Shown here piece by piece: positions 323 to 55,666 of a DNA stretch of 64,000 nt. The stretch's first letter is position 1. Each line of letters starts with the position of its first letter. The DNA comes from Bacteroidota bacterium (GTDB lineage: Bacteria; Bacteroidota; Ignavibacteria; SZUA-365). The position numbers and the translations under genes are program-made. Location of the stretch: assembly GCA_035362335.1 (NCBI GenBank), contig DAOSDL010000005.1, positions 12,708-76,707 of the forward strand, written 5' to 3'. The notes beneath the pieces are model-generated. The model made no database searches. It worked only from the letters and a program-made list of their open reading frames with translations, and was not told where the DNA came from.

Positions 323-1711
323 TCACATGCCCGCGTCATCGGCGAAGGGCGGGAGCGTTGCGGTGATGAGACGGCGTGCAGCGTCGAGATCGATATCTTC
401 GATGCGCGCGACGCCCTCGGTGAGTTGTTCGAGTATGCGCTGTTGCAGCAATCCCCGCCGCAGCGCGGTGGCATAGGGCAACAGATGGAAGGAGACCATC
501 GAATACATGGGCACGAAATAGTCGGGAAAATGCCGCTCCAGCACGAGACCGGCGCGCTTCATGAAGAGGAAGCGCGGGTCGGCGACGAGGTCGCGCATTT
601 CAATGAAATTCCGCAGTGCCATGTCCGCGATGGCGTCGGCATTGTCCTTGCGGCGATGCTGCACCTCGGCGAAGACGCGCGCCCAGTCGGCGCCGTGCCG
701 TTCGATGGCGTGGTCCAACGCCACGCAATCCTCGAAGGCGCAGTTCATTCCCTGCCCGAAGAACGGCACGATGGCGTGCGCGGCATCGCCCAGCAGCAGG
801 GCCTTGCCTTCCGCATGCCAACGGTCCACGCGCACAGTGCCCAGATGTCCGGTGGGATTGGCGAAAAACTCCTCCTCCAGTTGCGGCATCAAGGCGAGCG
901 CGTCGGGGAAGTACTGCGCGAAGAAGCTCCGTACGGTCGCCGCGTCGCGCAAGCTGTCGAAGGAGGTGTCGCCCTCACGTTGGAGAAACAGCGTGCAGGT
1001 GAAGGTACGGTCGGGATTGGGCAGGGCGATCATCATGAACGAGCTGCGCGGCCAGATGTGCAGCACATCCGCTTCCATGCGGAACGCACCGTCGGGTCCG
1101 GGATGAATGGTCAGCTCCTTGTACCCGTGCTCGAGCATGTCCTGCGTACACCGATGCCCGCCGCGTCGCAGCATGGCGTCGCGCAGCGCGGAGGCGGCGC
1201 CGTCGGTGCCGATCACGGTTGCTCCCGACACGTGCTGTTGTTCGCCGCTGCGCTCGTCCACGAACAGTGCGCCGCATGCGTCCACATCCACATCCTCGCA
1301 GCGCTGCGAGAAATGCAGGGCCACGGACGGCAGCGCTTCCGCGGCGCTCAACAGGCGCTTGTTCAATTCCGCGCGCGACACAGAGTGAATCACCTCCTCG
1401 GGCCGCTGACCGTAGGGTTGGAAGGTGCGTGTACCGTCCACCGCGTGCATCATGCGTCCACGCATGGGAATGGCGATGGAGAGAATGTCGCGGTCGAGCC
1501 CCACGCGCGCCAGTGCGTCGATACCGCGCGCCGACAGCGCGAGATTGATGGAGCGTCCCGCGCCTGGCGTGCCGCCACGAGGGTCGGGTCGCCGCTCGAA
1601 GGCCCGCACGGCGATGCCTCGGCGCGCAAGGAACACGGCGAGCAGCGAGCCGGCCAGGCCCGCGCCGATCAGGGTCACCGGTGCATGCTGCGTCATTCCG
1701 TTTGTCTCCAT
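323..1711 (-). CDS. kmo: Kynurenine 3-monooxygenase (FAD-dependent)
   Basis: 462 aa. N-terminal FAD GxGxxG motif (IGAGLAGSLLAVFLARRG). Conserved GDAAHAIVPFFGQGMNCAFEDC flavin-monooxygenase motif typical of KMO. Sits 16 nt upstream of kynA on the same strand. Confidence 0.88.
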   Translation of the reverse strand: METNGMTQHAPVTLIGAGLAGSLLAVFLARRGIAVRAFERRPDPRGGTPGAGRSINLALSARGIDALARVGLDRDILSIAIPMRGRMMHAVDGTRTFQPYGQRPEEVIHSVSRAELNKRLLSAAEALPSVALHFSQRCEDVDVDACGALFVDERSGEQQHVSGATVIGTDGAASALRDAMLRRGGHRCTQDMLEHGYKELTIHPGPDGAFRMEADVLHIWPRSSFMMIALPNPDRTFTCTLFLQREGDTSFDSLRDAATVRSFFAQYFPDALALMPQLEEEFFANPTGHLGTVRVDRWHAEGKALLLGDAAHAIVPFFGQGMNCAFEDCVALDHAIERHGADWARVFAEVQHRRKDNADAIADMALRNFIEMRDLVADPRFLFMKRAGLVLERHFPDYFVPMYSMVSFHLLPYATALRRGLLQQRILEQLTEGVARIEDIDLDAARRLITATLPPFADDAGM

Positions 1712-1732
1712 AGTTCTCTCATCCCGGCCATA

Positions 1733-3031
1733 TTACACGGCGCTATCGCGCCAGAAGGTGTGAAAGGCGTCCGCCAGGCGCCACACATCCTCGAAGGTGT
1801 TGTACATCGGTACCGGTGCGGCGCGTATCACATCGGGCTCGCGCCAGTCGCAGACAATGCCCTGCCGGTGCAGATGGTCGAAGCAGGCGCGGCCGCGTTC
1901 GTGCAGGCGGATGGAAAGCTGGCATCCCCGCTGTTCCGGATCGGCGGGTGTGATAATCGACCAGGTGTCGCGCTGCCCGGCGCGCAGGAGTTGTTCGAGC
2001 CAGCCGGTGAGGCGCAGGCTTTTCGCGCGCAGCGCGGGCATGCCCGCTTCCTCGAACAGCGCCAGCGAAGCGCGCAACGCGGCCATGGGCAGCACGGCCG
2101 GATTACTCAACTGCCACCCGTCGGCGCCCGGGGCGGGCATGAATTGCCGTGGCATGGCAAAACGCGTGGCGGGGTCGTGCCCCCACCAGCCGCTGAAGCG
2201 GGGGAGGTCCGGCGCATGCTCATGCCGCGCGTGCACGAAACATGCGGCTGTGCCGCCGGGGCCGGAGTTGAGGTATTTGTACGAACACCACACCGCGAAG
2301 TCCGCATTCCATTCGTGCAGGTGCAGGGGAACATTGCCCGCCGCATGGGCCAGATCGAGGCCGGCCACCATACCTGCCGCATGCGCCGCGTCGATCAGAG
2401 CGGGAATGTCGAACAACTGTCCGTTGTAATAATTCACACCGCCCAGCAACAGCATCGCCGCCTCGTCGCGATACAGATGGATGAGGTCCAGCGCACGCTG
2501 CCTGTCGAAGAGTCCATCCTCGCTGAGGGGAAGCTCGATCAGATCGTGCTCCGGATCGCAGCCGTGAAAGCGCAACTGCGACATCACCGCGTATTGGTCG
2601 GAGGGAAAGGCCTTTTCCTCGATGATGATTTTCCGCCGGCGGCCTTCGGGACGGTAGAAGGAAACGAGCAGCAAATGCAGATTCACCGTCAACGTGTTCA
2701 TCGCCACCACCTCCGAGGGCAGCGCGCCCACAATGCGCGCCAGCGGTGCGGCGACCTCCTCGTGCGTGCGCATCCACGGATGCGGGCCGTCGAAATGTCC
2801 GTCCACGGCCAGGCGCGCCCAGGTGTCGAGCTCGGTGAGAAGCTCAGCTTCGGTTGCCCGGGGTTGCAGGCCGAGAGAGTTGCCGCTGAAATAGGCGATC
2901 TCGCGTCCCTCCGCATCCAGCGGAACGTGGAAGCGCGGACGAAGCGTGGGAAAGGCGTCGCCGTGGTCGAGCATGCGGGCGTGTTCGAGCGTGGCGGTCG
3001 CGTGCGATGAATACGTGGGCGGTGCTGTCAT
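1733..3031 (-). CDS. kynU: Kynureninase (PLP-dependent)
   Basis: The track ORF 1733..3844 carries a spurious N-terminal extension. The real start is MTAPPTYSS at 3031, preceded by a GGAG ribosome-binding site. Kynureninase-like motifs are present, including SYKYLNSGPGG. The start overlaps the upstream gene stop as ATGA (3028-3031). Confidence 0.88.
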   Translation of the reverse strand: MTAPPTYSSHATATLEHARMLDHGDAFPTLRPRFHVPLDAEGREIAYFSGNSLGLQPRATEAELLTELDTWARLAVDGHFDGPHPWMRTHEEVAAPLARIVGALPSEVVAMNTLTVNLHLLLVSFYRPEGRRRKIIIEEKAFPSDQYAVMSQLRFHGCDPEHDLIELPLSEDGLFDRQRALDLIHLYRDEAAMLLLGGVNYYNGQLFDIPALIDAAHAAGMVAGLDLAHAAGNVPLHLHEWNADFAVWCSYKYLNSGPGGTAACFVHARHEHAPDLPRFSGWWGHDPATRFAMPRQFMPAPGADGWQLSNPAVLPMAALRASLALFEEAGMPALRAKSLRLTGWLEQLLRAGQRDTWSIITPADPEQRGCQLSIRLHERGRACFDHLHRQGIVCDWREPDVIRAAPVPMYNTFEDVWRLADAFHTFWRDSAV

Positions 3032-3849
3032 TGCTCCGGAGAAATGGGGTAGAGAATCGGACGGCTGGGTGTCGCATCGGAGACGAACGCGGCAATCTGC
3101 AAGTTGAGCAAATAACGGCCATCCGGTACATGATCCGGAATATAGACCATTTCCGTGATGGTGCGAAGCCGGGGCGCGCCAACGGCGACGCGCTGCTGAC
3201 CGACGGGCATTTGCCAGAACGCGTGATGCGCGAGCATCTCGCCGCCATCGTCGTCGCGGTCCAGCGATGGCACATCCACCAGCAGATGGCGCACGTCGCG
3301 TTCGACAAGGCATTGCACCGCCTCCACAGTGAAATACGGTGCGCGTTGCCGCGTGTAATGGCGCGTGCGCTTGCTCTCGGGATTGGGCAGCGTGCGAATG
3401 ATCACGGCCTGGCCGAAGGAAATGTCCTGCGACTCCAGCGCGTGCCGCAACGCGGTGGCCGTGATCAGCGTGTCGTCGGATGTGGCGTTGTGCGCGGCGC
3501 TTTCGTGCGAGGCGGCGGCGGGCACCAGCACGGCGCTGACGAGTGTCGCCGGAATGAGCGAGCCAGGCAACACATCGGTGACGGGGATGCGCTCGACGGT
3601 GAGATGCCCGACGCATTCGGTGTGCGTGCCGTTGCAATGCGGCGTGAGAACGAGGGTTTCGACGTTGCAGCTCCCGCCGAGACGGGTGTCGCCCACGAGC
3701 GATCCCGCGCGCAACGCCTCGGCATGCGCGTCCGCAACACCGTAGGCGTTGGGTTGCGCGCCGTGGAAGTCGAGCGGGATGGCGATGCTGATGCCGGCAT
3801 CGAGGTCGGCATCGAATCGCGCCTGGCCGATGGTGATGGTGCAAATCAT
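3028..3849 (-). CDS. Cyclase-family protein, putative kynurenine formamidase (divergent KynB-like)
   Basis: 273 aa. Cyclase-family hallmarks are TPHCNGTHTECVGH (a variant of HxGTHxDxPxH), LLVDVPSLDRDDDG, and a C-terminal PDGRYLLNLQ region. ATGA overlaps at both ends (3846-3849 and 3028-3031). Lies inside the kynurenine operon. Confidence 0.6.
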   Translation of the reverse strand: MICTITIGQARFDADLDAGISIAIPLDFHGAQPNAYGVADAHAEALRAGSLVGDTRLGGSCNVETLVLTPHCNGTHTECVGHLTVERIPVTDVLPGSLIPATLVSAVLVPAAASHESAAHNATSDDTLITATALRHALESQDISFGQAVIIRTLPNPESKRTRHYTRQRAPYFTVEAVQCLVERDVRHLLVDVPSLDRDDDGGEMLAHHAFWQMPVGQQRVAVGAPRLRTITEMVYIPDHVPDGRYLLNLQIAAFVSDATPSRPILYPISPEQ

Positions 3850-4862
3850 CGGATAAAACGCTCCTTGGTTAAGCCGAGCCAGTGGAGGGCGTTCTCGCCA
3901 AGCAACTTTTGCTTGACGGTGTTCGGAAGTTCATCCATGGATTCGATCAATGCGCCCGGAATGGCCTCGCCCAGAGGGAAGGGATAGTCCGAGCCGAGGG
4001 TGACGCGGTCTTCGCCCACGAGATCGATGATGTAGCGCAACATCACCGCGTCGTGCACGAGCGAATCGAGCCAGAAGCGCCCGAGGTAGGCGCGCGGCTG
4101 CACGGGGTTGTCGATGGCCACCAGGTCGGGCCGCACGTTGAAGCCGTGCTCAATGCGCCCGAGTGTTGCGGGGAAGGAGCCGCCGCCATGCGCGAAATTC
4201 ACGCGCAGACGGGGCAGGCGCTCGAGCACGCCGCCGAAAATCATCGAGCAAATCGCGAGCGAGGTTTCGGCCGGCATGGCCACCAGCCAGGGCAGCCAGT
4301 AGCGCTGCATGCGGTCGCGCCCCATCATGTCCCAGGGATGCACAAACACAGCGGCGCCCAGTTCCTGCGCCGCTTCGAAAAAGGGAAACAGTGCGGGTTC
4401 GTTGAGATTCCAGTCGTTGACATGCGTGCCGATTTCCACACCGGCCAGGCCGAGTTCCTTCACCGCGCGTTCGAGTTCGCGAATGGCGAGCGCGGGATCC
4501 TGCAAGGGCACGGTGCCGAGTCCCACGAAGCGCTGTGGATGCCCCGCCACCGTGGCCGCGATGTGATCGTTGAGATAGCGGGACAGATCATGACCGTGCT
4601 CGGGCTTGGCCCAGTAGCTGAACATCACGGGCACGGTGGACAACACCTGCACGTGTACTCCATGCGTGTCGCATTCGCCGATGCGCACGGCGGGATCCCA
4701 GGAATTCGGATGAAAGGTGCGGAAATGCTTGCAGTCCACGAACATGTCGGCCGCACCGTCGTCGCGCCGCTGCAACGCGGGGAAGCCGCCATACCCGTAG
4801 CGCTCGGCCAGATCGGGCCAGGACGGCGGGAGTATGTGAGTGTGTACGTCGACTTTCAGCAT
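3846..4862 (-). CDS. 2-amino-3-carboxymuconate-6-semialdehyde decarboxylase (ACMSD, amidohydrolase-2 family)
   Basis: 338 aa. Long stretches match ACMSD as I recall it from metazoan/Pseudomonas enzymes: MLKVDVHTHILPPSWPDL, STVPVMFSYWAKPE, YWLPWLVAMPAETSLAICSMIFGGV, FAHGGGSFP, LGSDYPFPLGE. Ribosome-binding site TGAGGA upstream of the ATG at 4862. Confidence 0.9.
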   Translation of the reverse strand: MLKVDVHTHILPPSWPDLAERYGYGGFPALQRRDDGAADMFVDCKHFRTFHPNSWDPAVRIGECDTHGVHVQVLSTVPVMFSYWAKPEHGHDLSRYLNDHIAATVAGHPQRFVGLGTVPLQDPALAIRELERAVKELGLAGVEIGTHVNDWNLNEPALFPFFEAAQELGAAVFVHPWDMMGRDRMQRYWLPWLVAMPAETSLAICSMIFGGVLERLPRLRVNFAHGGGSFPATLGRIEHGFNVRPDLVAIDNPVQPRAYLGRFWLDSLVHDAVMLRYIIDLVGEDRVTLGSDYPFPLGEAIPGALIESMDELPNTVKQKLLGENALHWLGLTKERFIR

Positions 4863-4937
4863 GCGTCCTCAGGTACTCGTTACAGGCGTGCGGGGAGTGC
4901 TTGGAAACGGGACCGGGCGGATGGCCGCGGCGAGCCC

Positions 4938-5462
4938 TCAGCGCGCGGGCACGGGCGCTTCCATCACCGCGCCGCATTGGCTGCAACGGCGCAGTTGTTC
5001 GGAGCCATAAAAACGCTCCATGATGGGTGGAAACTGCGTGACGATGTTTTCCAGCGTGAAATACTCCTCGTGCAACGGAGCATTGCATTGCTCGCAAAAC
5101 CAGAGAAATCCGTCCTGTTCACCCTCGCGGCGCTTGCGTTCGATTACCAGGCCCACGGTATTGGCCGGCCGTTGCGGCGAATGCGGCACGCGGGCGGGGA
5201 GGAGGAAGATCTCGCCCGGCCGCAGCTTCACCGCGCGACGCTCGCCATCCACGATGAGATGCAGCGTGATCTCGCCTTCGATTTGATAGAAAAACTCCTC
5301 GCCCTCGTTGTAATGGTAGTCCTTGCGGGCGTTGGGTCCGCCCACAATCATGACGATGAACTCCGCATTCTCGAACACCTGCAAGTTGCCCACCGGGGGT
5401 TTGAGCAAGTGGCGGTGTTCTTCTATCCATTGTTGAAGGTTGATGCCCTGTGATGTATACAT
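4938..5462 (-). CDS. 3-hydroxyanthranilate 3,4-dioxygenase (cupin)
   Basis: 174 aa. The cupin core (PNARKDYHYNEGEEFFYQIEGEITLHL) and the C-terminal Cys-rich rubredoxin-like segment (CEQC...CSQCG) are typical of HAAO/NbaC. Confidence 0.88.
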   Translation of the reverse strand: MYTSQGINLQQWIEEHRHLLKPPVGNLQVFENAEFIVMIVGGPNARKDYHYNEGEEFFYQIEGEITLHLIVDGERRAVKLRPGEIFLLPARVPHSPQRPANTVGLVIERKRREGEQDGFLWFCEQCNAPLHEEYFTLENIVTQFPPIMERFYGSEQLRRCSQCGAVMEAPVPAR

Positions 5463-5472
5463 GCGAACCTCG

Positions 5473-5886
5473 TCAAATCGTGGCGATACATTTCAACTCG
5501 ATGGCGATGGGGGTGGGGAGCGAGAGCACCTCCACGGTGGTGCGGCAGGGCCGGTTGTCCCGGAAATACTCCGCGTACACGCGGTTGAAGGTGGCGAAAT
5601 CCTTTTTCATGTCGGTGAGGAACACCGTCACATCCACAAGATTTTCCCAGGCCGCGCCGGCGTCCTCCAGCACGGCGCGCACATTGCGGAACACGCTGTG
5701 GCATTGCCGCTCGAAATCGTAGCTGATGACGCGGCCGTCCGCATCCACTTCCACGCCGGGCACGTCGTCGACGCCGCGTTCGCGCGGACCGATGCCCGAG
5801 AGAAACAGCAGATTGCCCACGCGACGCGCGTGCGGGTACAGGCCCACGGGCTCGGGAGCGGAGGAGGAGTGGATTTCCTCGTTCAT
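5473..5886 (-). CDS. RidA/YjgF-family protein, likely 2-aminomuconate deaminase
   Basis: RidA fold motifs are present (FLSGIGP, TVFLTDM, VEVLSLP). The ATG at 5886 overlaps the upstream ALDH stop as ATGA (5883-5886). The track start at 5910 is a GTG that lies upstream of this. Confidence 0.72.
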   Translation of the reverse strand: MNEEIHSSSAPEPVGLYPHARRVGNLLFLSGIGPRERGVDDVPGVEVDADGRVISYDFERQCHSVFRNVRAVLEDAGAAWENLVDVTVFLTDMKKDFATFNRVYAEYFRDNRPCRTTVEVLSLPTPIAIELKCIATI

Positions 5887-7397
5887 GGCGATGTTCCCAG
5901 ATGGATGCACACGTTGGTGGGTTCGGTGAAAAAGCGCAGCGCTTCCCAGCCGCCTTCGCGTCCGATGCCGCTCTGCTTCACGCCGCCGAAGGGCGTACGC
6001 AAATCACGCAGCATCCAGCAATTCACCCACACGATGCCCGCCTCCAGCGCGCCGGCAACGCGATGGGCGCGGAGCAGATCGCGCGTCCACAGCGACGCGG
6101 CGAGTCCGTAGGGCGTGGAGTTGGCGATGGCCAGCGCCTCTTCCTCGCTGTCGAAGGGCAGCAGCGTGACCACGGGACCGAAGATCTCTTCCTGATTCGT
6201 GCGGCACTGCGCCGACAGGCCGTCGATCACGGCGGGCGTGAGGAAGGCGCCACCGGCACAGCGGCCATCGGGCACGATGCGCTCACCGCCGCACAGCACC
6301 GTGCCACCCTCCTCGCGGGCAAGCTGCACATAGCTCAGGACTTTGTGGAGATGTTCCTCCGAAACCAAGGCGCCGATGCGCGTGTCGGGGTCCAGGGGAT
6401 CGCCCACACGCAGAGCGCGCACCTCGTCCACGAAGCGCGCGCGGAAGCGGTCGTACAAGCCGCGTTGCACGAGGATGCGCGAACCGCAAAGGCAGATTTC
6501 GCCCTGATTCGAGAAGGCCGAGCGCACGATGGTGGGCAGGATATCCTCCAGATCCACATCGTCGAAGACGATGGTGGGATTCTTGCCTCCCAGCTCCAGC
6601 GAGAGCTTTTTGAACATCGGCGCCGCCGTCGCGGCGATGGAGGCGCCGGTGCGCGTGCCGCCGGTAAAGGAAATAGCCGGCACATCCGGATGCGCGCAGA
6701 GGGGAGCGCCGACGTCCGCGCCGCGTCCATGCACGATGTTGAGCACGCCGGCGGGCAATCCGGCCTCGATGCACAGCTCCGCGAAGCGACCGGCGGTGAG
6801 CGGCGTCAATTCCGAGGGCTTGGCCACAACGCAACTGCCGGCGGCCAGCGCCGGGGCGATTTTCCAGGTGAAGAGGTACAGCGGCAGATTCCATGGTGAA
6901 ATGCAGGCCGCCACGGGTATGGGACGACGCAGCGTGTAGTTCAACGCCAGCGTATCGCTATGATGCGCCTCGTCGTGGTCGTGGAGAATGGCGGTGGCAA
7001 AAAATCGCAGATTGCGGGCCGCGCGCGGAATGTCCACCGTGCGCGCGAGCGTGAGCGGCTTGCCGTTGTCGCGCGATTCCAGCGCGGCGAGTTCTTCCAG
7101 ATGTTCTTCGACCAGGGTGGCGAGGCGCAGCAACAGCCGCGAACGCTGTTCCGCCGGTGTCGTGGCCCAGTGCCGTGCCTGTTGCGCCGCGCGGACGGCG
7201 GCGTCCACATCGCGGGCGTCGGATGCGGCCGCCATGGCGATGGTCGCGCCCGTCGCCGGCTCCAGCACGGGCAGCCAGTCGCCGCCTTCCGGATCCACCA
7301 ATGCGCCGCCGATGTAATTGCGAATGTAGTGCATGTCGTGCATCATGCGGACGCTTTCGCGACTGCGTTGCGCGCCGCCTGCTTTCTTTTGTGTCAT
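5883..7397 (-). CDS. NAD-dependent aldehyde dehydrogenase, likely 2-aminomuconate-6-semialdehyde dehydrogenase
   Basis: 504 aa. ALDH motifs present: ELGGKNP, FSNQGEICLCGSRILV, FGGVKQSGIGREGG. It is the first gene of the kynurenine operon. The N-terminus is uncertain (ATG at 7397 with no RBS, or an internal MM at about 7346). Confidence 0.85.
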   Translation of the reverse strand: MTQKKAGGAQRSRESVRMMHDMHYIRNYIGGALVDPEGGDWLPVLEPATGATIAMAAASDARDVDAAVRAAQQARHWATTPAEQRSRLLLRLATLVEEHLEELAALESRDNGKPLTLARTVDIPRAARNLRFFATAILHDHDEAHHSDTLALNYTLRRPIPVAACISPWNLPLYLFTWKIAPALAAGSCVVAKPSELTPLTAGRFAELCIEAGLPAGVLNIVHGRGADVGAPLCAHPDVPAISFTGGTRTGASIAATAAPMFKKLSLELGGKNPTIVFDDVDLEDILPTIVRSAFSNQGEICLCGSRILVQRGLYDRFRARFVDEVRALRVGDPLDPDTRIGALVSEEHLHKVLSYVQLAREEGGTVLCGGERIVPDGRCAGGAFLTPAVIDGLSAQCRTNQEEIFGPVVTLLPFDSEEEALAIANSTPYGLAASLWTRDLLRAHRVAGALEAGIVWVNCWMLRDLRTPFGGVKQSGIGREGGWEALRFFTEPTNVCIHLGTSP

Positions 7398-18702: not shown

Positions 18703-18840
18703 CAGGTAGGGTGGAAGCGGGGTGGGAGTTGTCAGCGGACAGGTAGGTCCGTTCTTCTTGTGTTCGCCGATTTGCGTATCTTGCAACGATGTTCCGCCGG
18801 GGGCGGAGCGCCTTCCATCGACCACCTACGAGGTTTTACC

Positions 18841-20022
18841 ATGAAACGTACCATCGTCGCGATGCCCGGTGACGGAATCGGGAAAGTCGTGCTTCCGGAA
18901 GCTATTCGCGTGCTCGATGCCGCGGGATTCGAAGCTGAATACGTCAACGGAGACATCGGCTGGGATTTCTGGTGCAGCGAGGGAAATCCGCTGCCGCAGC
19001 GCACCATCGATTTGCTCGAGCAGCACAAGATCGGCCTCTTTGGCGCCATCACTTCCAAGCCCAAGAACAAGGCGGCCGAGGAACTGTCCCCGGAACTGCG
19101 CGACAAGGGCTTCGTGTACTACAGCCCCATCGTGACCATGCGCCAGCATTTCGATCTGGACATCTGCATTCGTCCCTGCCAGACCTTTCCCAACAATCCG
19201 CTGAACTTCGTCCGCAAAACCCTCGCCGGCGGCTTCGAGGAGCCCACGGTGGATGTGGTGATTTTCCGGCAGAACACCGAAGGGCTGTACTCGGGTGTGG
19301 AGTGGACCAATCCGCCGCAGCAGGTGCGCGACGCGCTCGCAACGCACCCGCGCTTCAAGCCGTACAGCAATGTCCCGGGAGAGGACCTCGCCGTGTCCAC
19401 GCGCATTTTCACGCGGCATTACTGCCGCCGCATCGTCACCGCCGCTTTCGAGCATGCGAAGAAGTACGGGTATAAATCCGTGACGGTGTGCGAGAAGCCC
19501 AACGTGATTCGCGAAACCTCGGGCATGATGGAGCAGGAAGCCGCTCTTGCCGCGAAAAATTATCCGGGTATTTCGCTTTGGTCCACTAACATCGATGCGC
19601 AGATGATGTGGTTGACGAAAAATCCCGAGGACTACGGTGTGATCGTTGCGGGCAACATGTTCGGCGACATCGTGTCCGATGGTTTCGCAGGGCTGGTGGG
19701 CGGATTGGGTTTCGCTTGCAGCGCCAATATCGGCAGCGAAGTGGCGGTGTTCGAGCCCACGCACGGCTCGGCGCCGAAATACGAAAAGCTCGATCCCTCC
19801 ATCGTGAACCCCATCGCCATGATTCTCAGCGCCTGCATGATGCTGGATCATATCGGTGAAACGGAGAAGGCGCAGCGCATACGCGCGGCGATTTCCGCGG
19901 TGATCAGCGAAGGCGCGGTGCGCAGCTATGACATGCTCAAACTCGCGGGTGGCCCGGATGTGTTCGCCAAAGGCGCGGCCACCACACAGCAGATGACCGA
20001 CGCGATCATCGCACGATTGTAA
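18841..20022 (+). CDS. Isocitrate/isopropylmalate dehydrogenase-family beta-decarboxylating dehydrogenase
   Basis: About 394 aa from MKRTIVAMPGDGIGKVV (the track ORF starts earlier at 18760). Family signature NMFGDIVSDGFAGLVGGLGFACSANIG. Confidence 0.85.
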   Translation: MKRTIVAMPGDGIGKVVLPEAIRVLDAAGFEAEYVNGDIGWDFWCSEGNPLPQRTIDLLEQHKIGLFGAITSKPKNKAAEELSPELRDKGFVYYSPIVTMRQHFDLDICIRPCQTFPNNPLNFVRKTLAGGFEEPTVDVVIFRQNTEGLYSGVEWTNPPQQVRDALATHPRFKPYSNVPGEDLAVSTRIFTRHYCRRIVTAAFEHAKKYGYKSVTVCEKPNVIRETSGMMEQEAALAAKNYPGISLWSTNIDAQMMWLTKNPEDYGVIVAGNMFGDIVSDGFAGLVGGLGFACSANIGSEVAVFEPTHGSAPKYEKLDPSIVNPIAMILSACMMLDHIGETEKAQRIRAAISAVISEGAVRSYDMLKLAGGPDVFAKGAATTQQMTDAIIARL

Positions 20023-20057
20023 TCGGACGCCGCCGCAACGGCCCGCATTGAACGACG

Positions 20058-20096
20058 CAGCCCCCTGTACCACGTTGGTCCAGGGGGCTGTGCATG
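20058..20096. terminator. Bidirectional hairpin between convergent genes
   Basis: Stems cagccccctg (20058-20067) and cagggggctg (20081-20090), with a 13-nt loop and T-rich flank. Confidence 0.5.
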
Positions 20097-20139
20097 TTCT
20101 GACGGTGCGAGGCGCCGTGCGCCTGAGCCGCAGCCGCAA

Positions 20140-20808
20140 TCAGCGCGAGCCCTCCGATGCGACGCGCGAGGGTTGCGCGGCGATGGAGCGGGCGTAGTCC
20201 GTGCCGTCGCCGAAGGAGTCGGCGAATTTGTCGACGAAGGGCGCGAGCACCGCACGAAGGCCCGGCATGTGCAGTCCCCCGATCATCACTCGCGTGGAGG
20301 GGAGCAAGGCGCGCAGATCGCGCAACAGCTGCTCGGTGACCTCCATCGATCCCACGGACTTCATTGTGAAGCACACGAGATCGGGTTGCAGCGCCGAAGC
20401 GCTTTGGAGAATGTCGTGCGTGGGCACGGAGTTGCCGTAGTGGTACACTTCCCATCCCTCGCGCTCGAGAATGTTGGCGAGAATGGTGGAAGCCACATCG
20501 TGATACTCGTTGGGTACGCAGCCGATGAGTGCCTTTTTGCCGTTGCGTGCGGCGGGCTTGCCGCGAAAGGCCTTGTAGGCGAGTACCTGCTTGACGATTT
20601 GCGTCGCGATATGCTCGCTGACAATGCTCTGGCTGTTCTCTTCCCAGCCGGTGCCGACCTGCGCGAGCGCGGGGATGAGAATGTCATTGTAGAGCAATTC
20701 ATCCGGTAATTGCTGCTGTTCCCATTCCTCCACGAGCGCGAAACATCGGCGGCGGTCGCCGGCGAGCAGCGGCTCGGTGAACATCGAGAGTTGATCGTTG
20801 CGTGTCAT
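20140..20808 (-). CDS. Stand-alone cobalamin (B12)-binding domain protein (B12-binding_2 helical cap plus Rossmann B12-binding domain)
   Basis: Real start MTRNDQ at 20808 (GGAGG ribosome-binding site); the track ORF 20140..21516 is over-extended. The motif reads GCVPNEYHDVAS, a variant of DxHxxG, followed by a GG loop (MIGGLH). No DNA-binding domain. Confidence 0.78.
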   Translation of the reverse strand: MTRNDQLSMFTEPLLAGDRRRCFALVEEWEQQQLPDELLYNDILIPALAQVGTGWEENSQSIVSEHIATQIVKQVLAYKAFRGKPAARNGKKALIGCVPNEYHDVASTILANILEREGWEVYHYGNSVPTHDILQSASALQPDLVCFTMKSVGSMEVTEQLLRDLRALLPSTRVMIGGLHMPGLRAVLAPFVDKFADSFGDGTDYARSIAAQPSRVASEGSR

Positions 20809-21257
20809 GCTTCCGCCTCCATGCTCAGACTGTGTTCGCGTTGCTGCAATTGCCGCAGCGCCTCGGCGATGGCGTCGCTGTTGTACTGCTCCATGAAGGC
20901 ATGGGTCGCGGTGCGCGTGGCCGCAAGCAGATTGGGAATGAAGGAGGTGGGGAAATGCCGATGCGTGAGAAAATTCCGCAGCCAATCGAGATACTCGATC
21001 AGCGCGGCGGGCAATTGGTACTTCATGGTGGCCTGGAGATTTTCCACAAAAATCTTGGCGCACTCCCTTGCAAGACGCGCGCGCTCGGGATCGGCGATGA
21101 GATCGCGAAACGCCTCGTTGCACTCCAGCCTGTCGATCACGGCGGAGAGAATTTTTTCCTTCTGCTTCTGAAACTCCTCGACATCCGGCGCCGCGATCGC
21201 GCCAAAGGAGATGGGCTCGGCTACTGCTTCCATAACGAATCGCCCGAATGTGAACAA
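20805..21257 (-). CDS. Hypothetical all-helical protein, translationally coupled to the downstream B12-binding protein
   Basis: 142-150 aa. TTG at 21257 or ATG at 21233 (MEAVAEP...). Its stop overlaps the B12-protein start by 4 nt (20805-20808). No recognisable domain. Confidence 0.45.
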   Translation of the reverse strand: MFTFGRFVMEAVAEPISFGAIAAPDVEEFQKQKEKILSAVIDRLECNEAFRDLIADPERARLARECAKIFVENLQATMKYQLPAALIEYLDWLRNFLTHRHFPTSFIPNLLAATRTATHAFMEQYNSDAIAEALRQLQQREHSLSMEAEA

Positions 21258-21601
21258 TGAATGCTTGAGAACAACATGCGTCCCGAGTGGAAAGTTTCAC
21301 AGTTCTTCCGTGAAAATGGTATGGGTGCGATGATGTGCAACGGAGCGGATTTGACAGAGGGGGAAAACCACAGATAGCACGGATTTCACACGGATTTTCA
21401 CAGATGAATCGGAGAAGGGTGCGCGGGCAGCGGTTACTTTTCACCATTTTTCCTTTTGCCTCGTGATTGCGTGGTAGCATCGCGGCATCGCGATTATCCA
21501 AACCGGCGGGGCCCATTATCCACGGGGACTTCGTATATTAGTACATCCACGCCTTTTTATCGCGCGGATATCACGAAGTACTCATCGAAACAGAGATCAG
21601 C

Positions 21602-22822
21602 ATGAACAGCAGAGCCGAAGCCGGGAGGGGTGGCAAGAACGTGCGCTCGGATTGCCTCGTTGCCATCGAACTTCTCGATAGCGGCGGCATCACCATTGAT
21701 CTGCGCAGCAAGGTGGAGACCCTGTACGGGCGCTCCATCCGCGCTATGGTCGAGGAGATGCTCGCTTTTTATACCATCACCGATGCGCGCATCGTCGTCG
21801 AGGACAGCGGTGCGTTGCCCTATGTGCTGGCCGCGCGCATCGAGGCGGCCATCCGTCGACTGCGTCCCGAGGAGACGCGCGAGTTCCTTCTTCCCACGCG
21901 ACCCGGCATCGCATTGAGCACAGCGCGCGACCGTTTGCGCCGCTCGCGCCTCTATCTGCCGGGCAACGATCCGAAGCTGGCCATCAACGCGGGCATTCAC
22001 GAAGCGGATGCTATCATCCTCGATCTCGAAGACTCCGTCGCGCCCGCCGAAAAGGATGCCGCACGCCTGCTCGTGCGCAACACCTTGCGCGAGGTGGATT
22101 TCATGGGCGCCGAACGCATGCTGCGCGTCAATCAGGGGGCGCCGGGTATGGAGGATCTGCGCATGCTGATTCCCCAGGGACCCAATCTCGTGCTCATTCC
22201 CAAAGTGGAGGAAGCCGCGCAGGTGCGCGACGTGCATGCGCTCATCGAGGAATTGCGCCAGCGGCACGGCATTGCCCACGACATTCACCTGATGCCGATC
22301 ATTGAAAGCGCGCGAGGTGCGCTGTTCGCCTACGACATCGCGACGGCGGCTCCGAGCGTGGTTGCTCTCGCCATCGGTCTCGAGGATTACACGGCGGACA
22401 TCGGGGCCGAGCGCACGCTGGAAGGCCGCGAGAGTTTCTGGATGCGTGGCGCGGTGCTCAATGCCGCGCGTGCTGCCGGCGTGCAGGCCATCGACACGGT
22501 GTTTTCGGATGTCAATGATATGGACGGCCTGTACGCGAGTGTGCGCGAAGCCGCTTCGCTGGGCTTCGACGGCAAGGGCTGCATCCATCCCCGGCAGATC
22601 GCGGTGGTGCATCGTGGTTTCGCACCCACCGAGGCCGATATGGAAAAAGCCAAGCGCATCGTGCTGGCTTTCGACGATGCCACGCGGCGCGGTCTCGGCG
22701 TGGTGGCGCTGGGATCGAAAATGATCGACCCCCCTGTGGTCAAGCGCGCGCTGCGCACCATCGATCTGGCGGTGCGCTCGGGCGTGCTGTCGCAAACATG
22801 GAAAGAGGAGGTGCAGGCATGA
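21602..22822 (+). CDS. Citrate lyase gamma (acyl carrier, CitD) - beta (citryl-CoA lyase, CitE) fusion protein
   Basis: The N-terminal about 95 aa resemble CitD, including the prosthetic-group Ser region (RSDCLVAIELLDSGGI). The remainder is HpcH/HpaI-fold CitE (YLPGNDPKLAINAGIHEADAIILDLEDSVAP...). Confidence 0.78.
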   Translation: MNSRAEAGRGGKNVRSDCLVAIELLDSGGITIDLRSKVETLYGRSIRAMVEEMLAFYTITDARIVVEDSGALPYVLAARIEAAIRRLRPEETREFLLPTRPGIALSTARDRLRRSRLYLPGNDPKLAINAGIHEADAIILDLEDSVAPAEKDAARLLVRNTLREVDFMGAERMLRVNQGAPGMEDLRMLIPQGPNLVLIPKVEEAAQVRDVHALIEELRQRHGIAHDIHLMPIIESARGALFAYDIATAAPSVVALAIGLEDYTADIGAERTLEGRESFWMRGAVLNAARAAGVQAIDTVFSDVNDMDGLYASVREAASLGFDGKGCIHPRQIAVVHRGFAPTEADMEKAKRIVLAFDDATRRGLGVVALGSKMIDPPVVKRALRTIDLAVRSGVLSQTWKEEVQA

Positions 22823-24372
22823 GCGCGGAACGCGTCATCAATGCGGCGGGACGCGAAGTTCTCACCGAGATCAACGGTGTGCCCGCCGTTCCCTATCAGG
22901 GCGTCGGCGCATACAAACCCTCTGGCCGCAAGGCCGCACCGCCGGTGTCGTCCTGTGCGGACTATCCGTCCGACGGCAACAAGGTGCTCCCGGGTTTGCG
23001 CGAAGCCCTGATCAACGCCGGACTGCGCGATGGCATGACCATTTCCAGTCATCATCATTTCCGCAACGGCGACCTGGTGGCGAATCAGGTGTTCGACATC
23101 GCGGCGGAACTGGGCGTGAAGGATTTGCGCTGGTTTCCTTCGGCCGCCTTCCCCTGCCACGAACCGCTGATCAAGCATCTCGAAAGCGGCGTGATCCATC
23201 ACATCGAGGGCTCGATGAATGGGCCGCTGGGCGATTACGCAAGCTCGGGCAGGATGCGCGGGCTGGGCGTACTGCGTTCGCACGGCGGCCGCTACCAGGC
23301 CATTCAGGATGGAGAAGTCCATATCGACATCGCGGTCATCGCCGCACCCACCTCCGATCCCTTCGGCAACTGCAATGGCGTGAACGGTCCCTCGGCCTGC
23401 GGAGGGTTGGGCTTCGCGCTGGCGGATTCGCAGTATGCGGACAAGGTGATTGTGGTCACGGACAACCTTGTCCCCTTCCCCTGTGTACCCTGGCAGTTGC
23501 ACGGCAATCATGTGGACAGCGTGGTGGTGCTGGACAAGATCGGCGAGCCCGAAAAAATCGTGAGTGGCACAACGGCCATCACGAAAAGTCCCGACCGTCT
23601 GCTCATCGCCGAACTCACCGCGCGTTTCTGCGATGCCGCCGGCATCGTGCGCGACGGCTTCTCCTTTCAGGCGGGTGCGGGTGGCACCGCCCTGTCCTTC
23701 GCCATCTTCCTGCGCGACATGATGCGCGAACGCCGCATCAAGGCGCGCTTCGTGCGCGGTGGAAGTACGCGCTACCTGGTCGACATGCTGGAGGAAGGGC
23801 TGACGGACTACATCCTCGACGGTCAGACCTTCGACCTCGCGGGCGTGCAATCCATGCGCGACAATCCGCGCCATATTCACAGCAATCCCTTCGTCAGCTA
23901 CAACTACCATGGCAAGGGCAATGTGGCCTCCATGCTCGATGTGGTGGTGTTGGGTGCGACGGAAGTGGATGTGCAATTCAACGCGAATGTGGTGTCGCAC
24001 AGCGATGGACGCTTGCTGCATGGCATCGGCGGATGGCAGAACTGTCTGTTCTCCAAATGCACCATTCTGCCCATCCCCAGCTTCCGCGACCGCATACCGG
24101 TGATTGTGGACCAGGTCACCACGCTGTGCGGTCCCGGAGAACTGATCGATGTGATCGTGACCGAGCGCGGCATCGCCATCAATCCCTTGCGTCAGGATCT
24201 CATCGACGCAACGCGGAACTCCGGGCTGCCCATTCGTCCGATCGAGGCCATCAAGGATGAAGTGGAATCGATGTGCGGCGGAGCGCCGGACAAGCCGCGC
24301 TTCATCGACAACTACATCGCCGCCATCAAATGGGTGGACGGTACGGTCATCGACATGGTGAAGCAGGTGTAG
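22819..24372 (+). CDS. citF: Citrate lyase alpha subunit (citrate CoA-transferase)
   Basis: About 517 aa from MSAERVINAAGREV. GAGGAGG ribosome-binding site, then an ATG at 22819 that overlaps the upstream stop as ATGA. CitF-family length and motifs. Confidence 0.88.
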   Translation: MSAERVINAAGREVLTEINGVPAVPYQGVGAYKPSGRKAAPPVSSCADYPSDGNKVLPGLREALINAGLRDGMTISSHHHFRNGDLVANQVFDIAAELGVKDLRWFPSAAFPCHEPLIKHLESGVIHHIEGSMNGPLGDYASSGRMRGLGVLRSHGGRYQAIQDGEVHIDIAVIAAPTSDPFGNCNGVNGPSACGGLGFALADSQYADKVIVVTDNLVPFPCVPWQLHGNHVDSVVVLDKIGEPEKIVSGTTAITKSPDRLLIAELTARFCDAAGIVRDGFSFQAGAGGTALSFAIFLRDMMRERRIKARFVRGGSTRYLVDMLEEGLTDYILDGQTFDLAGVQSMRDNPRHIHSNPFVSYNYHGKGNVASMLDVVVLGATEVDVQFNANVVSHSDGRLLHGIGGWQNCLFSKCTILPIPSFRDRIPVIVDQVTTLCGPGELIDVIVTERGIAINPLRQDLIDATRNSGLPIRPIEAIKDEVESMCGGAPDKPRFIDNYIAAIKWVDGTVIDMVKQV

Positions 24373-32606: not shown

Positions 32607-32972
32607 TTATTCGGCTTTGCCCGGAATGGGATCCACGGCGTAGCTGGCGACCGCGCGCTCGACGGAGTCGAAGCTCTTGAACACTTTCACAAGCTGCGTG
32701 ATCATGAAGAGACTGTTGATTTTCTCGGTTACGTTGGCAATGCGCATGTCCCCACCCCCATTGTTCACCGTGGCGAGTGCGGAGATCAATGCGCCGAGTC
32801 CGGAGCTGTTCACCCATTTCAGTTTGCCGACGTCGAGCACGATTTTCAGAAAACCGTCACGCACGAGATGCTTGACGGCATCGCGAAGTTCCGTGGTGTC
32901 CGGCTCGCCCATGAGGTTTCCCTTCATCTCGAGAACGACGACGTCCCCGCGGAATTCCTCCTTGATATTCAT
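32607..32972 (-). CDS. STAS-domain anti-sigma-factor antagonist (SpoIIAA-like)
   Basis: ATG at 32972 (MNIKEEFRGDVVVLEMKGNLMG...). AGAGGAA ribosome-binding site. The conserved phosphorylatable Ser region is in NSSGLGALI. Confidence 0.8.
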   Translation of the reverse strand: MNIKEEFRGDVVVLEMKGNLMGEPDTTELRDAVKHLVRDGFLKIVLDVGKLKWVNSSGLGALISALATVNNGGGDMRIANVTEKINSLFMITQLVKVFKSFDSVERAVASYAVDPIPGKAE

Positions 32973-32997
32973 GGTGTTCCTCTGTTGTGAAAAAGAT

Positions 32998-33213
32998 CTA
33001 CTGATTGTGTCGTTTGTTGGATTGCGCGAGTTGCGCGAATTCGCAATTGCCCTGATGGGTGCAGCTGCCACAATGCGCCACTTCGCGGGGCACGGCACCG
33101 AAGCAACGTGGGCATCGGTCCGAGAGCGGATTCAGGATGAGGTAATCGCAGTGGGGACAATGCCGCTGTTCAGAGCGCAATTGTTCTTCATGCGCGCGCA
33201 GTTCGTCGCTCAT
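32998..33213 (-). CDS. Small Cys-rich zinc-ribbon-like protein (71 aa)
   Basis: CPHC...CPRC...CGSC...C pattern. Codon usage is consistent with coding sequence. No clear ribosome-binding site. Confidence 0.35.
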   Translation of the reverse strand: MSDELRAHEEQLRSEQRHCPHCDYLILNPLSDRCPRCFGAVPREVAHCGSCTHQGNCEFAQLAQSNKRHNQ

Positions 33214-39955: not shown

Positions 39956-42148
39956 ATGAAGCTGGGATGTACCGCGTCGGCGCGACGCGGAGCGTGCGCC
40001 GTGGCGCTGCTCGTCCTTCTCGCACCTCTTCTCCACGCGCAAACAGGCAGCATACACGGCACGGTCGTGCTCGAGGATCTGCCTCGCGGCGTGGCGGGTG
40101 TGAATATCGTCATTCCCGGCGGCACGCACGGGACTATCACCGACACGCGCGGTGCCTTCACCATCCCTGATGTGCCCGAAGGTGTGTACCGCGTCCGTGC
40201 TTCCTATATCGGCTACGCTCCGGTGCTGCGCGACAGCGTGCGCGTCCGTGCCGGCGAACGCACGGAGTTGCGCATCGTGCTCACCTCCTCGCCCTTCCTT
40301 CTCGACGAAGTAGTGGTGACGGGTACGCTCAATCAGCATTTGCTCAAAGACAGCCCGGTACTGACCGAGGTGATGTCGTCGCGGGATTTGCGCATGGTGG
40401 GCAGTTCCGATCTCGCGGATATCATGCGTTCGCACACGGGCATCGAAATCGGCACAGGCATCGGACAGACGCAGAGTGCGCAGTTGCACGGCCTGAGCGA
40501 CAATCACGTCCTTGTGTTGGTGGATGGCGAACGGGTGACGGGCAAGGTGGATGGCGCGGTGGATCTCGGGCAGATTCCCGTGCAGGCCATTGAAAAAATC
40601 GAAGTGGTGAAAGGCCCGTTGTCCGCGAAGTACGGCACCGATGCCATCGGTGGTGTGATCAACATCATCACACGCAAGGCGGGCGAGGGTAGCCGCGCAA
40701 CAGTGGCCGCGCATGTGGGCGGCTACGAGCGCCGCGATATCGAGGCGAGTGCTTCGCACAGCGTGACGGACGCGTTCGGCGCGGGCAGCATGCTCGGCGT
40801 ATTCGTGAATGCCGCGTGGAATTCCTTCGGCGGCGTGGATTACAACGCGTCCGACAATTTCATGGAAATGCCCGAGCGCGACCGCAAGCATGTGGGAGTA
40901 AAAACGGACATGCGCATCTCGGATGCGCTGTCCTTCGATTTGCGTGGCGAGTACTACCGCGACCGCAGCGAATGGCTCGCCGGCAATCCGAGCGTGTTCT
41001 TCCGCGACATCGCCGGAAATGACAAATGGACCGGCACGGCGTCGGCCCGTTACGCATTCTCGCCCCTGACCTCGCTTTCCGCCACGGCGCATGTTTCCAC
41101 CAACGACCACAGTTCCATCGAGGAATCGCGTTCGGGCAACAGATTGCGCGATGATGCTTCCAAGGAGCGGATAGAAACCGCACGCCTGCAATTCGCGACA
41201 GCGCCGTACGGCAACAGCATCGTCACCCTTGGCTATGAATACACCGCCGAGCGCGCCGAAAGCGACCGGCTCGACAATCGCAGCAAGGCGTATTACAACA
41301 ACGTGCTCTACGCGGAGGACGAATGGTCGATGGGACCGGTGATGATTTCGGTGGGCGGGCGCTTTTCGCACAACAGCGTGTACGGCAACTTCTTCGCGCC
41401 GCGTGTGAGCGGCGTGTGGAAGGTGGATGAACAACTCACCTTGCGCGCTTCGTACGGACGCGGTTTCCGCGCGCCGAGCATCAACGAACTGTACATCGAT
41501 TTTCCCAACAACGGCGTGGGTTATATCGTGAAGGGCGAACCCACGTTAAAAGCTGAATCCTCGCACGGCTACAACGCCGGACTGCAATACGCGCGCGACA
41601 ACCTGGTGTGGCTGCGTGTGAACGCGTACCGCAACGACCTGACCAATCTCATCGACTACTACGTGCGCTCGGGTAATCCCATCACGCTGTCGTACCGCAA
41701 CATCGCCACCGCCGTCACCATGGGGGTGGATGTGGACATCGACATGCAACTGCACTCCTCGCTGCTGCTCGGCGCGGGGTATGGCTATACGGTGGCGGAG
41801 GATGGGGCCGGGCGCGACCTGCCGTTCCGCACGCCGCATTCCCTGACGCTGCGCCTGCGGCACGACTGGGCGATGACGGGACTGCGCACCTTCGTACGCG
41901 CGCGGTGGTTCGACCGCAAACTCGTGACCGACGAGCAGATCAACCTTTCCATTTACACTGGAGGCGGGGATGCGAAATTCTTCCATACGCCCGCATACGC
42001 CGTGGTGGATGTGCGCTTCTCCCGCGTGCTCTTCGACCGCCTCGAAGTTTCGGCGGGCGTACACAATGCCACCGATCAAACCTTCTATCCCTTCGGGCAG
42101 ATCAAGGGACGCGAATGGTTTGCCGGCGCGACCTGGACCATCGAATGA
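39956..42148 (+). CDS. TonB-dependent outer-membrane receptor with an N-terminal carboxypeptidase-regulatory-like domain
   Basis: Signal peptide. CarbopepD_reg-like segment (GSIHGTVVLED...GVYRVRASYIGY). Plug domain, beta-barrel, and a C-terminal aromatic residue. Confidence 0.85.
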   Translation: MKLGCTASARRGACAVALLVLLAPLLHAQTGSIHGTVVLEDLPRGVAGVNIVIPGGTHGTITDTRGAFTIPDVPEGVYRVRASYIGYAPVLRDSVRVRAGERTELRIVLTSSPFLLDEVVVTGTLNQHLLKDSPVLTEVMSSRDLRMVGSSDLADIMRSHTGIEIGTGIGQTQSAQLHGLSDNHVLVLVDGERVTGKVDGAVDLGQIPVQAIEKIEVVKGPLSAKYGTDAIGGVINIITRKAGEGSRATVAAHVGGYERRDIEASASHSVTDAFGAGSMLGVFVNAAWNSFGGVDYNASDNFMEMPERDRKHVGVKTDMRISDALSFDLRGEYYRDRSEWLAGNPSVFFRDIAGNDKWTGTASARYAFSPLTSLSATAHVSTNDHSSIEESRSGNRLRDDASKERIETARLQFATAPYGNSIVTLGYEYTAERAESDRLDNRSKAYYNNVLYAEDEWSMGPVMISVGGRFSHNSVYGNFFAPRVSGVWKVDEQLTLRASYGRGFRAPSINELYIDFPNNGVGYIVKGEPTLKAESSHGYNAGLQYARDNLVWLRVNAYRNDLTNLIDYYVRSGNPITLSYRNIATAVTMGVDVDIDMQLHSSLLLGAGYGYTVAEDGAGRDLPFRTPHSLTLRLRHDWAMTGLRTFVRARWFDRKLVTDEQINLSIYTGGGDAKFFHTPAYAVVDVRFSRVLFDRLEVSAGVHNATDQTFYPFGQIKGREWFAGATWTIE

Positions 42149-42221
42149 TTCGACAACGGCGCCGCTGTGTGCGCCGAGGCATGCATGTTCATTCTCATCG
42201 TTTCACTGAAAGGATCGTTCC

Positions 42222-43202: not shown

Positions 43203-43222
43203 CCCTCGGCGGACAATGAAGC

Positions 43223-43279
43223 ATGGAGGGATGTGCCGCGCTCGATGCGCACGGCCATCCCTCCATTCGATTTTTCTCG
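43223..43279 (+). terminator. Hairpin plus T-tract after the lipoprotein gene
   Basis: atggagggatg ... catccctccat (22-nt loop with an inner stem), then tcgatttttctcg. Confidence 0.5.
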
Positions 43280-43492
43280 ACATAGCGCCGGATCCTTGTA
43301 AATGGGATATTGGGTGTCTGAAAAAGATTTCGTAGGTTGTTACAGGCATGGCCGCCTGGAGAACGGCCGTGATGGGAGAGGCAGGATGTCACAGCAACCC
43401 TGTGCCCACGGGTGCGGGGCGAAGCCGGATCACGCGCGTTGTGCTTTCCGCGTGTCCCTGTGTACATTCACTGCAACAAGGTGTTGATTGCC

Positions 43493-53778: not shown

Positions 53779-53806
53779 GGCTGTGTCCTCATTCCTTGTG
53801 CGTGGA

Positions 53807-55402: not shown

Positions 55403-55666
55403 CGCAATCGTCCTTGTTGTGAATGCCGGGAAGATTTCAGATAGGACATGATATGTCCGAAAAGGTTGAATGTCAAGATGCACCCGGGAGATCGCAGTGG
55501 GCACAGAGGCGGGCAACTCCCGGGGCGAGAGGTATGCACCGTACGCACGCGCGCACAACGCCGCCACTGCCGCGATGTGCGGAAAAAGCGTAGATTTCAC
55601 TCATGAGCACCGTTCGCATTGTTCCACAATAGCGGCACGCAGCACACCCGCAACACCGTCACACTC

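Follow-up and report, generated by a model that had tools for sequence, protein, structure and literature searches.

A 64,000-nucleotide stretch of contig DAOSDL010000005.1 from a Bacteroidota bacterium (assembly GCA_035362335.1, positions 12,708 to 76,707; hereafter called the window) carries two small overlapping genes that probably encode a split photocobilin: a stand-alone photoglobin and a stand-alone CarH-type cobalamin module, made from translationally coupled genes. We put the probability of this reading at about 0.6. In the photocobilins SasPcob (8J2W/8J2X) and AbPcob (8J2Y) the two modules are fused (Zhang et al. 2024, PMC10979010), whereas here each module is a polypeptide of its own; the globin gene comes first and overlaps the B12 gene by ATGA. 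Separate globin and B12-binding genes have been described side by side (PMC8717448, PMC10151467), so the pair is not a new kind of regulator. It is a divergent, lineage-restricted example, from Bacteroidota/Ignavibacteria metagenome-assembled genomes (MAGs), of a split-gene kind that is already known.

The cobalamin-binding protein

The downstream gene, whose limits we read directly from the sequence, encodes a 222-residue protein in which Pfam recognizes B12-binding_2 (E 5e-10) and B12-binding (E 3e-17) domains. No other Pfam domain was found in it, DNA-binding and catalytic domains included. This is the domain composition that a first-pass annotation of the same DNA had proposed. A four-helix bundle followed by a Rossmann B12-binding domain is the arrangement of CarH-type proteins.

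The protein also keeps most of the residues that mark light-responsive cobalamin-binding domains, a signature consisting of GxxW, EH, GxxH and GxxxP (PMC11796333; SignatureFinder). In TtCarH, W131, E141 and H142 (W-x9-EH) cap the adenosyl group and H177 is the lower axial ligand (PMC11796333). All 17 distinct members of the B12-protein family have the cap motif GxxW-x9-EH (G52-T-G-W55 and E65-H66 in the window protein). GxxxP (G125-N-S-V-P129) is likewise present in 17/17, as is the lower-ligand histidine (His103, codon CAC at 20500-20502), which aligns with the lower-ligand histidines of CtMerR, SasPcob and AbPcob. In L017, the most divergent B12 partner, the cap tryptophan is followed directly by histidine (G-E-E-W-H, residues about 52-56), much as W131 is followed by H132 in TtCarH; all other members have W-E, and L017 alone might form a bis-His light state.

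The GxxH glycine is the element that has been replaced, by N100 in the window protein and by N, D or E in all 17 members. In CtMerR it is the main-chain carbonyl of this glycine that hydrogen-bonds the corrin (PMC11796333), and because the contact uses the main chain a side chain at this position may be tolerated.

The first-pass annotation had singled out E-Y-H-D-V-A as a non-canonical lower-ligand motif. The motif is certainly there (N100-E101-Y102-H103-D104-V105-A106), but it is not odd in this clade. It lines up with G-D-L-H-E-I-A of CtMerR, and the histidine of CtMerR D-L-H-E-I-A is the lower cobalt ligand in a solved adenosylcobalamin-binding domain (PMC11796333); the SasPcob equivalent is E-W-H-A-L-P.

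When a family profile is ranked against the PDB, the cobalamin domain of CtMerR comes first (8jbs, E 1.2e-21), with SasPcob (6.4e-17) and AbPcob (6e-10) also ahead of MetH (about 1e-9), the corrinoid proteins of methyltransferases (about 1e-7), AerR (2e-5) and TtCarH (3e-5). By sequence, then, the nearest relatives of the 222-residue protein are CtMerR and the photocobilins, with their light-responsive cobalamin domains, and not AerR. The comparison does not support the earlier assignment to the AerR/PpaA type.

The globin-like partner

The upstream gene can be read from a TTG start (20805-21257, minus strand, 150 residues), though an ATG at 21233 that gives 142 residues is more likely. We take this ATG as the real start because the N-terminus MEAVAE is common to homologues and public gene calls give 142 residues.

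Sequence searches against Pfam, NCBIfam and PDB sequences, with the single sequence and with a profile, gave nothing usable for this protein; the best matches, to ATP synthase subunit b and rhodopsin (E about 0.16), were judged to be chance. Structure prediction was informative. An AlphaFold2 model built from a nine-sequence alignment is all-helical, with seven helices, and confident (predicted local distance difference test score 90.4, predicted template modelling score 0.85). Foldseek with this model returned phycobiliproteins or engineered derivatives of them for all of the top 50 matches. The fold is nearest to that of phycobiliproteins and of the globin domain in photocobilins. The protein is thus all-helical, as the first-pass annotation had supposed, but the accompanying view that it has no recognizable domain does not hold, given its globin fold and the photoglobin homology described below.

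For that comparison we used 12 C-terminal domains taken from actinobacterial photocobilin fragments with a C-terminal globin domain. Alignment by hhalign of a 20-sequence profile of the window globin family with these domains gave a probability of 94.2% (E 1.1e-7, 97 columns). Eleven controls (reversed, column-shuffled or B12-domain) gave probabilities of at most 1.2% and E values of at least 0.04. A hidden Markov model (HMM) search with the family profile through 1.84 billion representative proteins returned only 13 clusters, without a link to the fused photoglobins; these are stand-alone proteins of 136-178 residues, apart from one 71-residue fragment. The globin homology rests on profile-profile and fold evidence because the HMM search misses the main photoglobin family.

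The two families share a motif that reads Y-L-D-W-L-R-x-F-L-x-x-R-x-F-P in the window family and F-V-D-W-L-x-x-V-L-x-x-R-G-V-P in the photocobilins. Its tryptophan (Trp84) is present in 20/20 family members and aligns with the conserved tryptophan of the photocobilin globin domain (SasPcob Trp296), a mapping based on the alignment and on the matching 26-residue spacing between Asp270 and Trp296. Trp296 of SasPcob makes a hydrogen bond to the corrin ring and also packs on ring D of the bilin (PMC10979010). The conserved hydrophobic residue on helix 4 of photoglobins (L80; PMC8717448) is Leu89 here, in 19/20 members.

The bilin-binding residue is not kept. Photoglobin D49, on helix 3 within the CxQD motif, corresponds to SasPcob Asp270 and binds the bilin pyrroles. 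The aligned position 58 is Ser in 13 family members, Cys in 4 (the window protein among them) and Val, Ala and Thr in one each. The CxQD/CxRD aspartate is therefore not conserved: the aligned stretch reads A-x-E-[C/S], with a one-residue register error possible, as Glu57 is adjacent. Both Glu57 and Arg53 are invariant across the 20 members. A heme-binding globin was considered and rejected, since His111 occurs in just 13/20 members and there is no other conserved candidate for a proximal histidine.

The predicted fold and the profile comparison together identify the protein as a divergent photoglobin-type globin that has kept the corrin-facing surface and lost the canonical bilin-binding residue. 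A non-heme globin of the phycobiliprotein/BBAG-2 lineage is the best explanation of the data.

Coupling, selection and a promoter-like motif

The two genes are coupled as the first-pass annotation had suggested. The TGA stop of the globin gene overlaps the ATG of the B12 gene by 4 nt, and this ATGA overlap is kept in 10/10 distinct loci from MAGs labelled Bacteroidota, Bacteroidetes or Ignavibacteria and from metagenomes, including loci whose partners are just 36-43% identical. A purine-rich, Shine-Dalgarno-like stretch precedes the B12-gene ATG in all 10 loci (mostly GGAGG, otherwise GGAG or GGGAG). Both features have thus been retained while the pair proteins have diverged to 36-58% identity. 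No Shine-Dalgarno-like site was seen before the ATG of the globin gene, the first gene of the operon, in the 10 loci. The conserved GGAG(G) lies inside the globin coding sequence, a constraint that may account for the globins' Gly/Glu-rich C-termini.

Both genes are real and evolve under purifying selection: the ratio of nonsynonymous to synonymous substitution rates is 0.11 for the globin gene (against an 89%-identical orthologue) and 0.04 for the B12 gene (against a 97%-identical orthologue).

A conserved motif, GAAAC[T/C]T-N16/17-(A/T)TGTT, is located 52-82 nt before the globin ATG in all 10 distinct loci. The pattern GAAACTTN{16,17}GTT has one match in the 64-kb window against 0.10 expected. 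Moreover, each of the 16 fetched loci that match it (L001-L013, L015, L017 and L018) has a single copy, always just upstream of the pair. The GxAAC-N18-GTT arrangement is akin to SigR/SigH-type consensus sequences. Promoters that ECF (extracytoplasmic function) sigma factors use share AAC in their −35 element, and a T-tract often comes next, as in tGAAACnTTTt (PMC5758882). The motif resembles such a promoter and may well act as one. The window contains no ECF sigma gene, and a scan for sigma-70 promoters and terminators gave one weak, uninformative site about 260 bp upstream of the globin ATG. No cobalamin riboswitch or other Rfam element was matched in the window.

Table 1. Features of the gene pair and its surroundings. 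Coordinates are window positions unless another locus is named.
Feature	Position	Strand	Remarks
Photoglobin-like gene, stand-alone globin-fold partner	20805..21233	-	142 aa + stop codon
Stand-alone CarH-type cobalamin-binding protein gene	20140..20808	-	222 aa + stop codon
ATGA stop/start overlap (translational coupling)	20805..20808	-	Read directly from sequence
Shine-Dalgarno-like GGAGG inside 3' end of photoglobin gene	20816..20820	-	7 nt before B12-gene ATG
Promoter-like motif GAAACTTTCCACTCGGGACGCATGTT (GxAAC-N18/19-GTT)	21273..21298	-	Begins 65 nt upstream of photoglobin ATG
Four-helix-bundle cap, B12-binding_2, residues 12-78	20575..20775	-	With G52-x-x-W55-x9-E65-H66
Rossmann B12-binding domain, residues 92-181	20266..20535	-	With N100-E-Y-H103-D-V-A106 and G125-N-S-V-P129
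Trp84 codon, within motif YLDWLRxFLxxRxFP	20982..20984	-	Trp in 20/20 family members
Glu57-Cys58 codons	21060..21065	-	Position 58 aligns with SasPcob Asp270 (hhalign register)
idh-citE (acyl carrier protein fusion)-citF cluster	18760-24372; L044 286-6758; also L075, L084, L085, L088, L092, L094, L095, L097, L099		Widely conserved, co-directional
Two CarboxypepD_reg-Plug-TonB-dependent receptors flanking a 326-aa gene	39956-45781	+	Sole match of the 326-aa gene: faint HmuY

Genomic neighbourhood

Wherever flanks are visible, the pair lies between the divergent citrate lyase genes citE-citF, citE being fused to an acyl carrier protein, and a convergent gene of the isocitrate dehydrogenase family (idh). 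The first-pass annotation had noted the divergent citrate lyase genes correctly. This flanking holds down to 36-39% pair-protein identity and extends to four further metagenome loci of the lineage; the two that are long enough show both genes of the pair, and the two shorter ones show the globin gene only. Across these loci isocitrate dehydrogenase is 84-88% and CitF 80-90% identical. The lineage is therefore narrow, as these neighbours are 80-90% identical while the pair proteins are only 36-64% identical.

Related genomes put the arrangement in perspective. The pair is missing from 43 sister-lineage loci (CitE 51-62% identical) that have 1.5 kb or more of upstream sequence; in them idh is either directly upstream of citE or part of a co-directional idh-HD-aconitase-citE-citF cluster. 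Because the sister lineages have the cluster without the pair, we view the pair as a lineage-specific insertion into an older idh-citEF cluster, inherited since. It separates idh from citE in this lineage and is read from the opposite strand. The conserved element CAATATA (TATATTGC, citE strand) may be a new citE promoter. We downgraded the citrate lyase linkage as functional evidence, given that sister lineages have idh beside citEF without the pair, and the association looks positional rather than functional.

No signal-transduction gene lies within ±10 kb of the pair in any locus, and no B12 transport or salvage gene lies next to it. In the window the only signalling-type gene is a lone 121-residue STAS (anti-sigma-factor antagonist) gene at about 32835-33200 on the minus strand (L019 2880-3245), with a PspA_IM30 gene after it on that strand. 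It is about 12 kb from the pair and outside the conserved neighbourhood. STAS and SpoIIE genes accompany photoglobins in Actinobacteria.

The first-pass annotation had also counted TonB-dependent receptors and an HmuY-like gene as close context. We rejected a functional link: these genes are 19-25 kb away, the HmuY match is faint, and they lie outside the conserved neighbourhood.

Two further gene groups were noted elsewhere in the window. A run of minus-strand genes at 323-7397 resembles a kynurenine/3-hydroxyanthranilate pathway cluster, with an FAD monooxygenase (FAD_binding_3), a kynureninase-like protein, a cyclase (possibly kynurenine formamidase), an Amidohydro_2 protein (ACMSD-like), 3-hydroxyanthranilate dioxygenase and aldehyde dehydrogenase. 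At 52186-55600, also on the minus strand, DUF1800 (597 residues) and DUF1501 (530 residues) genes adjoin.

Relation to known systems

Three reports describe related pairs. Stand-alone photoglobins "almost always" adjoin B12-binding_2 plus B12-binding genes (Schneider et al. 2022, PMC8717448). The BBAG-2 globins of Myxococcota, which bind biliverdin, have separate B12-binding proteins as neighbours (Rockwell et al. 2023, PMC10151467). Such stand-alone photoglobin/BBAG-2 and B12-binding proteins have been explicitly called homologues of the two photocobilin chromophore domains (2026, PMC13446030). The window pair shares with these systems the separate globin gene beside a separate B12-binding_2 plus B12-binding gene, and a globin of the phycobiliprotein/photoglobin/BBAG-2 fold group; the Cys of Cys-bearing members such as the window protein may recall that of the BBAG-2 RGMC motif. 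The general idea in the first-pass annotation, a two-protein unit responsive to B12 or light, thus holds as a prediction from sequence, but such a unit is not new.

The differences are considerable. Unlike the known photoglobin and BBAG-2 pairs, the window pair has no pre-PcyA bilin reductase or heme oxygenase beside it, lacks the CxQD aspartate, and belongs to a family whose HMM, with its 13 clusters, does not reach them. Photoglobin loci have signal-transduction genes in almost all reported instances, whereas the ±10 kb around this pair have none. Photocobilins come from Actinobacteria and this pair from Bacteroidota/Ignavibacteria-type MAGs; sequence identity between them is only 15-27%, the biliverdin-binding Asp270 position is Cys or Ser here, and GxxH has become [N/D/E]xxH. 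Nowhere does the text of PMC8717448 name Bacteroidetes or Ignavibacteria. CtMerR (8JBS/8JBT; PMC11796333) and CarH/LitR carry an N-terminal MerR DNA-binding domain and are direct repressors, while the window protein lacks that domain and is paired with a globin. What distinguishes the pair is its high divergence, an unmentioned lineage, the loss of the bilin-binding aspartate and the GxxH glycine, neighbours without signalling or bilin-synthesis genes, and the conserved ECF-like motif.

A possible mechanism and the evidence against it

If the pair is a split photocobilin, transcription would start from the conserved ECF-sigma-like promoter. The B12 protein would bind adenosylcobalamin base-off/His-on through His103, with Trp55 and Glu65-His66 capping the adenosyl group. 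The globin, which may carry a bilin or, as the canonical aspartate is missing, may not, would dock on the exposed corrin edge through the surface around the invariant Trp84, as the globin domain of fused photocobilins does, to give a heterodimer. Green or near-UV light would cleave the Co-C bond, and a bound bilin might make longer wavelengths effective as well; with cleavage the complex would change its conformation or oligomeric state. Output domains are lacking in both proteins, so the signal would pass to an unlinked target by protein-protein contact. There is precedent for this, as stand-alone photocobilin domains control a diguanylate cyclase in trans by protein-protein interaction (PMC10979010).

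Several observations weigh against the split-photocobilin reading. The 64-kb window contains no heme oxygenase, bilin reductase (FDBR), kinase, GGDEF or ECF sigma gene, and no transcription factor gene: a MerR-, CrtJ- or PpsR-like repressor, the cognate partner that the first-pass annotation had suggested looking for, was sought there and not found. The failure of the family HMM search to reach the main photoglobin family counts on the same side. So do the MAG labels RA_AS and Zod, which we read as activated-sludge-like and Zodletone-like and which may hint at dim habitats. The bilin-binding aspartate (SasPcob Asp270, CxQD) has given way to Cys, Ser, Thr, Val or Ala, and in AbPcob its loss lowers biliverdin occupancy. 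To these can be added the substitution of the GxxH glycine in every B12 family member. Lacking regulator genes in its window, the locus departs from the reported rule that photoglobins accompany signal transduction (PMC8717448).

Alternative explanations

The missing aspartate, the lack of a heme oxygenase gene in the window, our reading of some host MAG names as dim habitats and the example of AbPcob, in which the globin domain is a poor bilin binder and may have a different role, would all suit a cobalamin sensor, carrier or chaperone that works independently of light. Such a protein would report or buffer B12 or handle corrinoid, with the globin as a bilin-free structural shield for the corrin. 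We consider this unlikely, though it deserves more attention than the readings that follow. The GxxW-x9-EH and GxxxP motifs, which separate light-responsive cobalamin-binding domains from those of enzymes and carriers (PMC11796333), are strictly conserved, the nearest relatives are proven photoreceptors, the window has no cobalamin riboswitch, and no B12 transport or salvage gene lies beside the pair. An antirepressor of the AerR/PpaA type, which binds photolysed hydroxocobalamin and sequesters a CrtJ/PpsR-like repressor, would share with the pair the stand-alone B12-binding_2 plus B12-binding architecture and action through a protein partner; the helical protein would then be a new accessory subunit. 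This is improbable. AerR is far below CtMerR and the photocobilins, by sequence and by structure; the full CarH-type adenosyl-capping motif W-x9-EH is kept; and a photoglobin partner is a hallmark of photocobilin or BBAG-2 systems rather than AerR systems. A member of the AerR/PpaA group would be most similar to AerR and have a CrtJ/PpsR partner; AerR is not the closest relative here, and the 64 kb contain neither a CrtJ/PpsR gene nor a photosynthesis gene. Least credible of all is a methyltransferase-type corrinoid protein (of the MtaC/MtbC/MtmC kind) that shuttles methyl groups with the helical protein as accessory factor, a possibility that the first-pass annotation had named as fatal to its own proposal. 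Similarity to such proteins is much weaker: NCBIfam corrinoid-protein models score about 27 bits, far under their curated cut-offs of 215-420 bits, and photoreceptor domains are better by 10-14 orders of magnitude in E value. Photoreceptors typically have the EH and GxxW cap motif, and neither the 64 kb nor any syntenic locus encodes an MT1/MT2 methyltransferase or an activase.

Position invites one more thought. Because the pair always lies between citE-citF and idh where flanks are visible, and because photocobilins can regulate enzymes through protein-protein interaction, it might control the neighbouring citrate lyase and isocitrate dehydrogenase genes or enzymes in response to light or B12. 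The narrowness of the lineage, the absence of the pair from the 43 sister-lineage loci, which looks like a single inherited insertion, and the lack of a DNA-binding domain in either protein make this very improbable. A broader version is also a long shot, if a somewhat better one. In it the globin uses other chromophore chemistry, with invariant Arg53/Glu57 and, in some members, Cys58 in place of the canonical aspartate (a covalent Cys-linked bilin, or no bilin); the complex is made from an ECF-sigma promoter that responds to stress or light, and it modulates the flanking citrate lyase or isocitrate dehydrogenase enzymes by direct contact. If that were true, light or B12 status would be tied to central carbon flux in non-phototrophic Bacteroidota/Ignavibacteria.

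Significance

The split-photocobilin reading opens no new category of regulator. What it does provide is a fold and a probable role for a small, unannotated protein family without Pfam, NCBIfam or PDB sequence matches. The replacement of the bilin-binding aspartate by Cys or Ser beside an invariant Glu offers a natural test of how essential that residue is. As a naturally split and minimal form (142 plus 222 residues, no output domain), the pair could suit the study of globin docking on the corrin edge, and pairs of this type also hold interest as optogenetic components. For the biology of these organisms, the pair would extend the photoglobin/B12 "two-chromophore" sensor theme to a Bacteroidota/Ignavibacteria-type MAG lineage.

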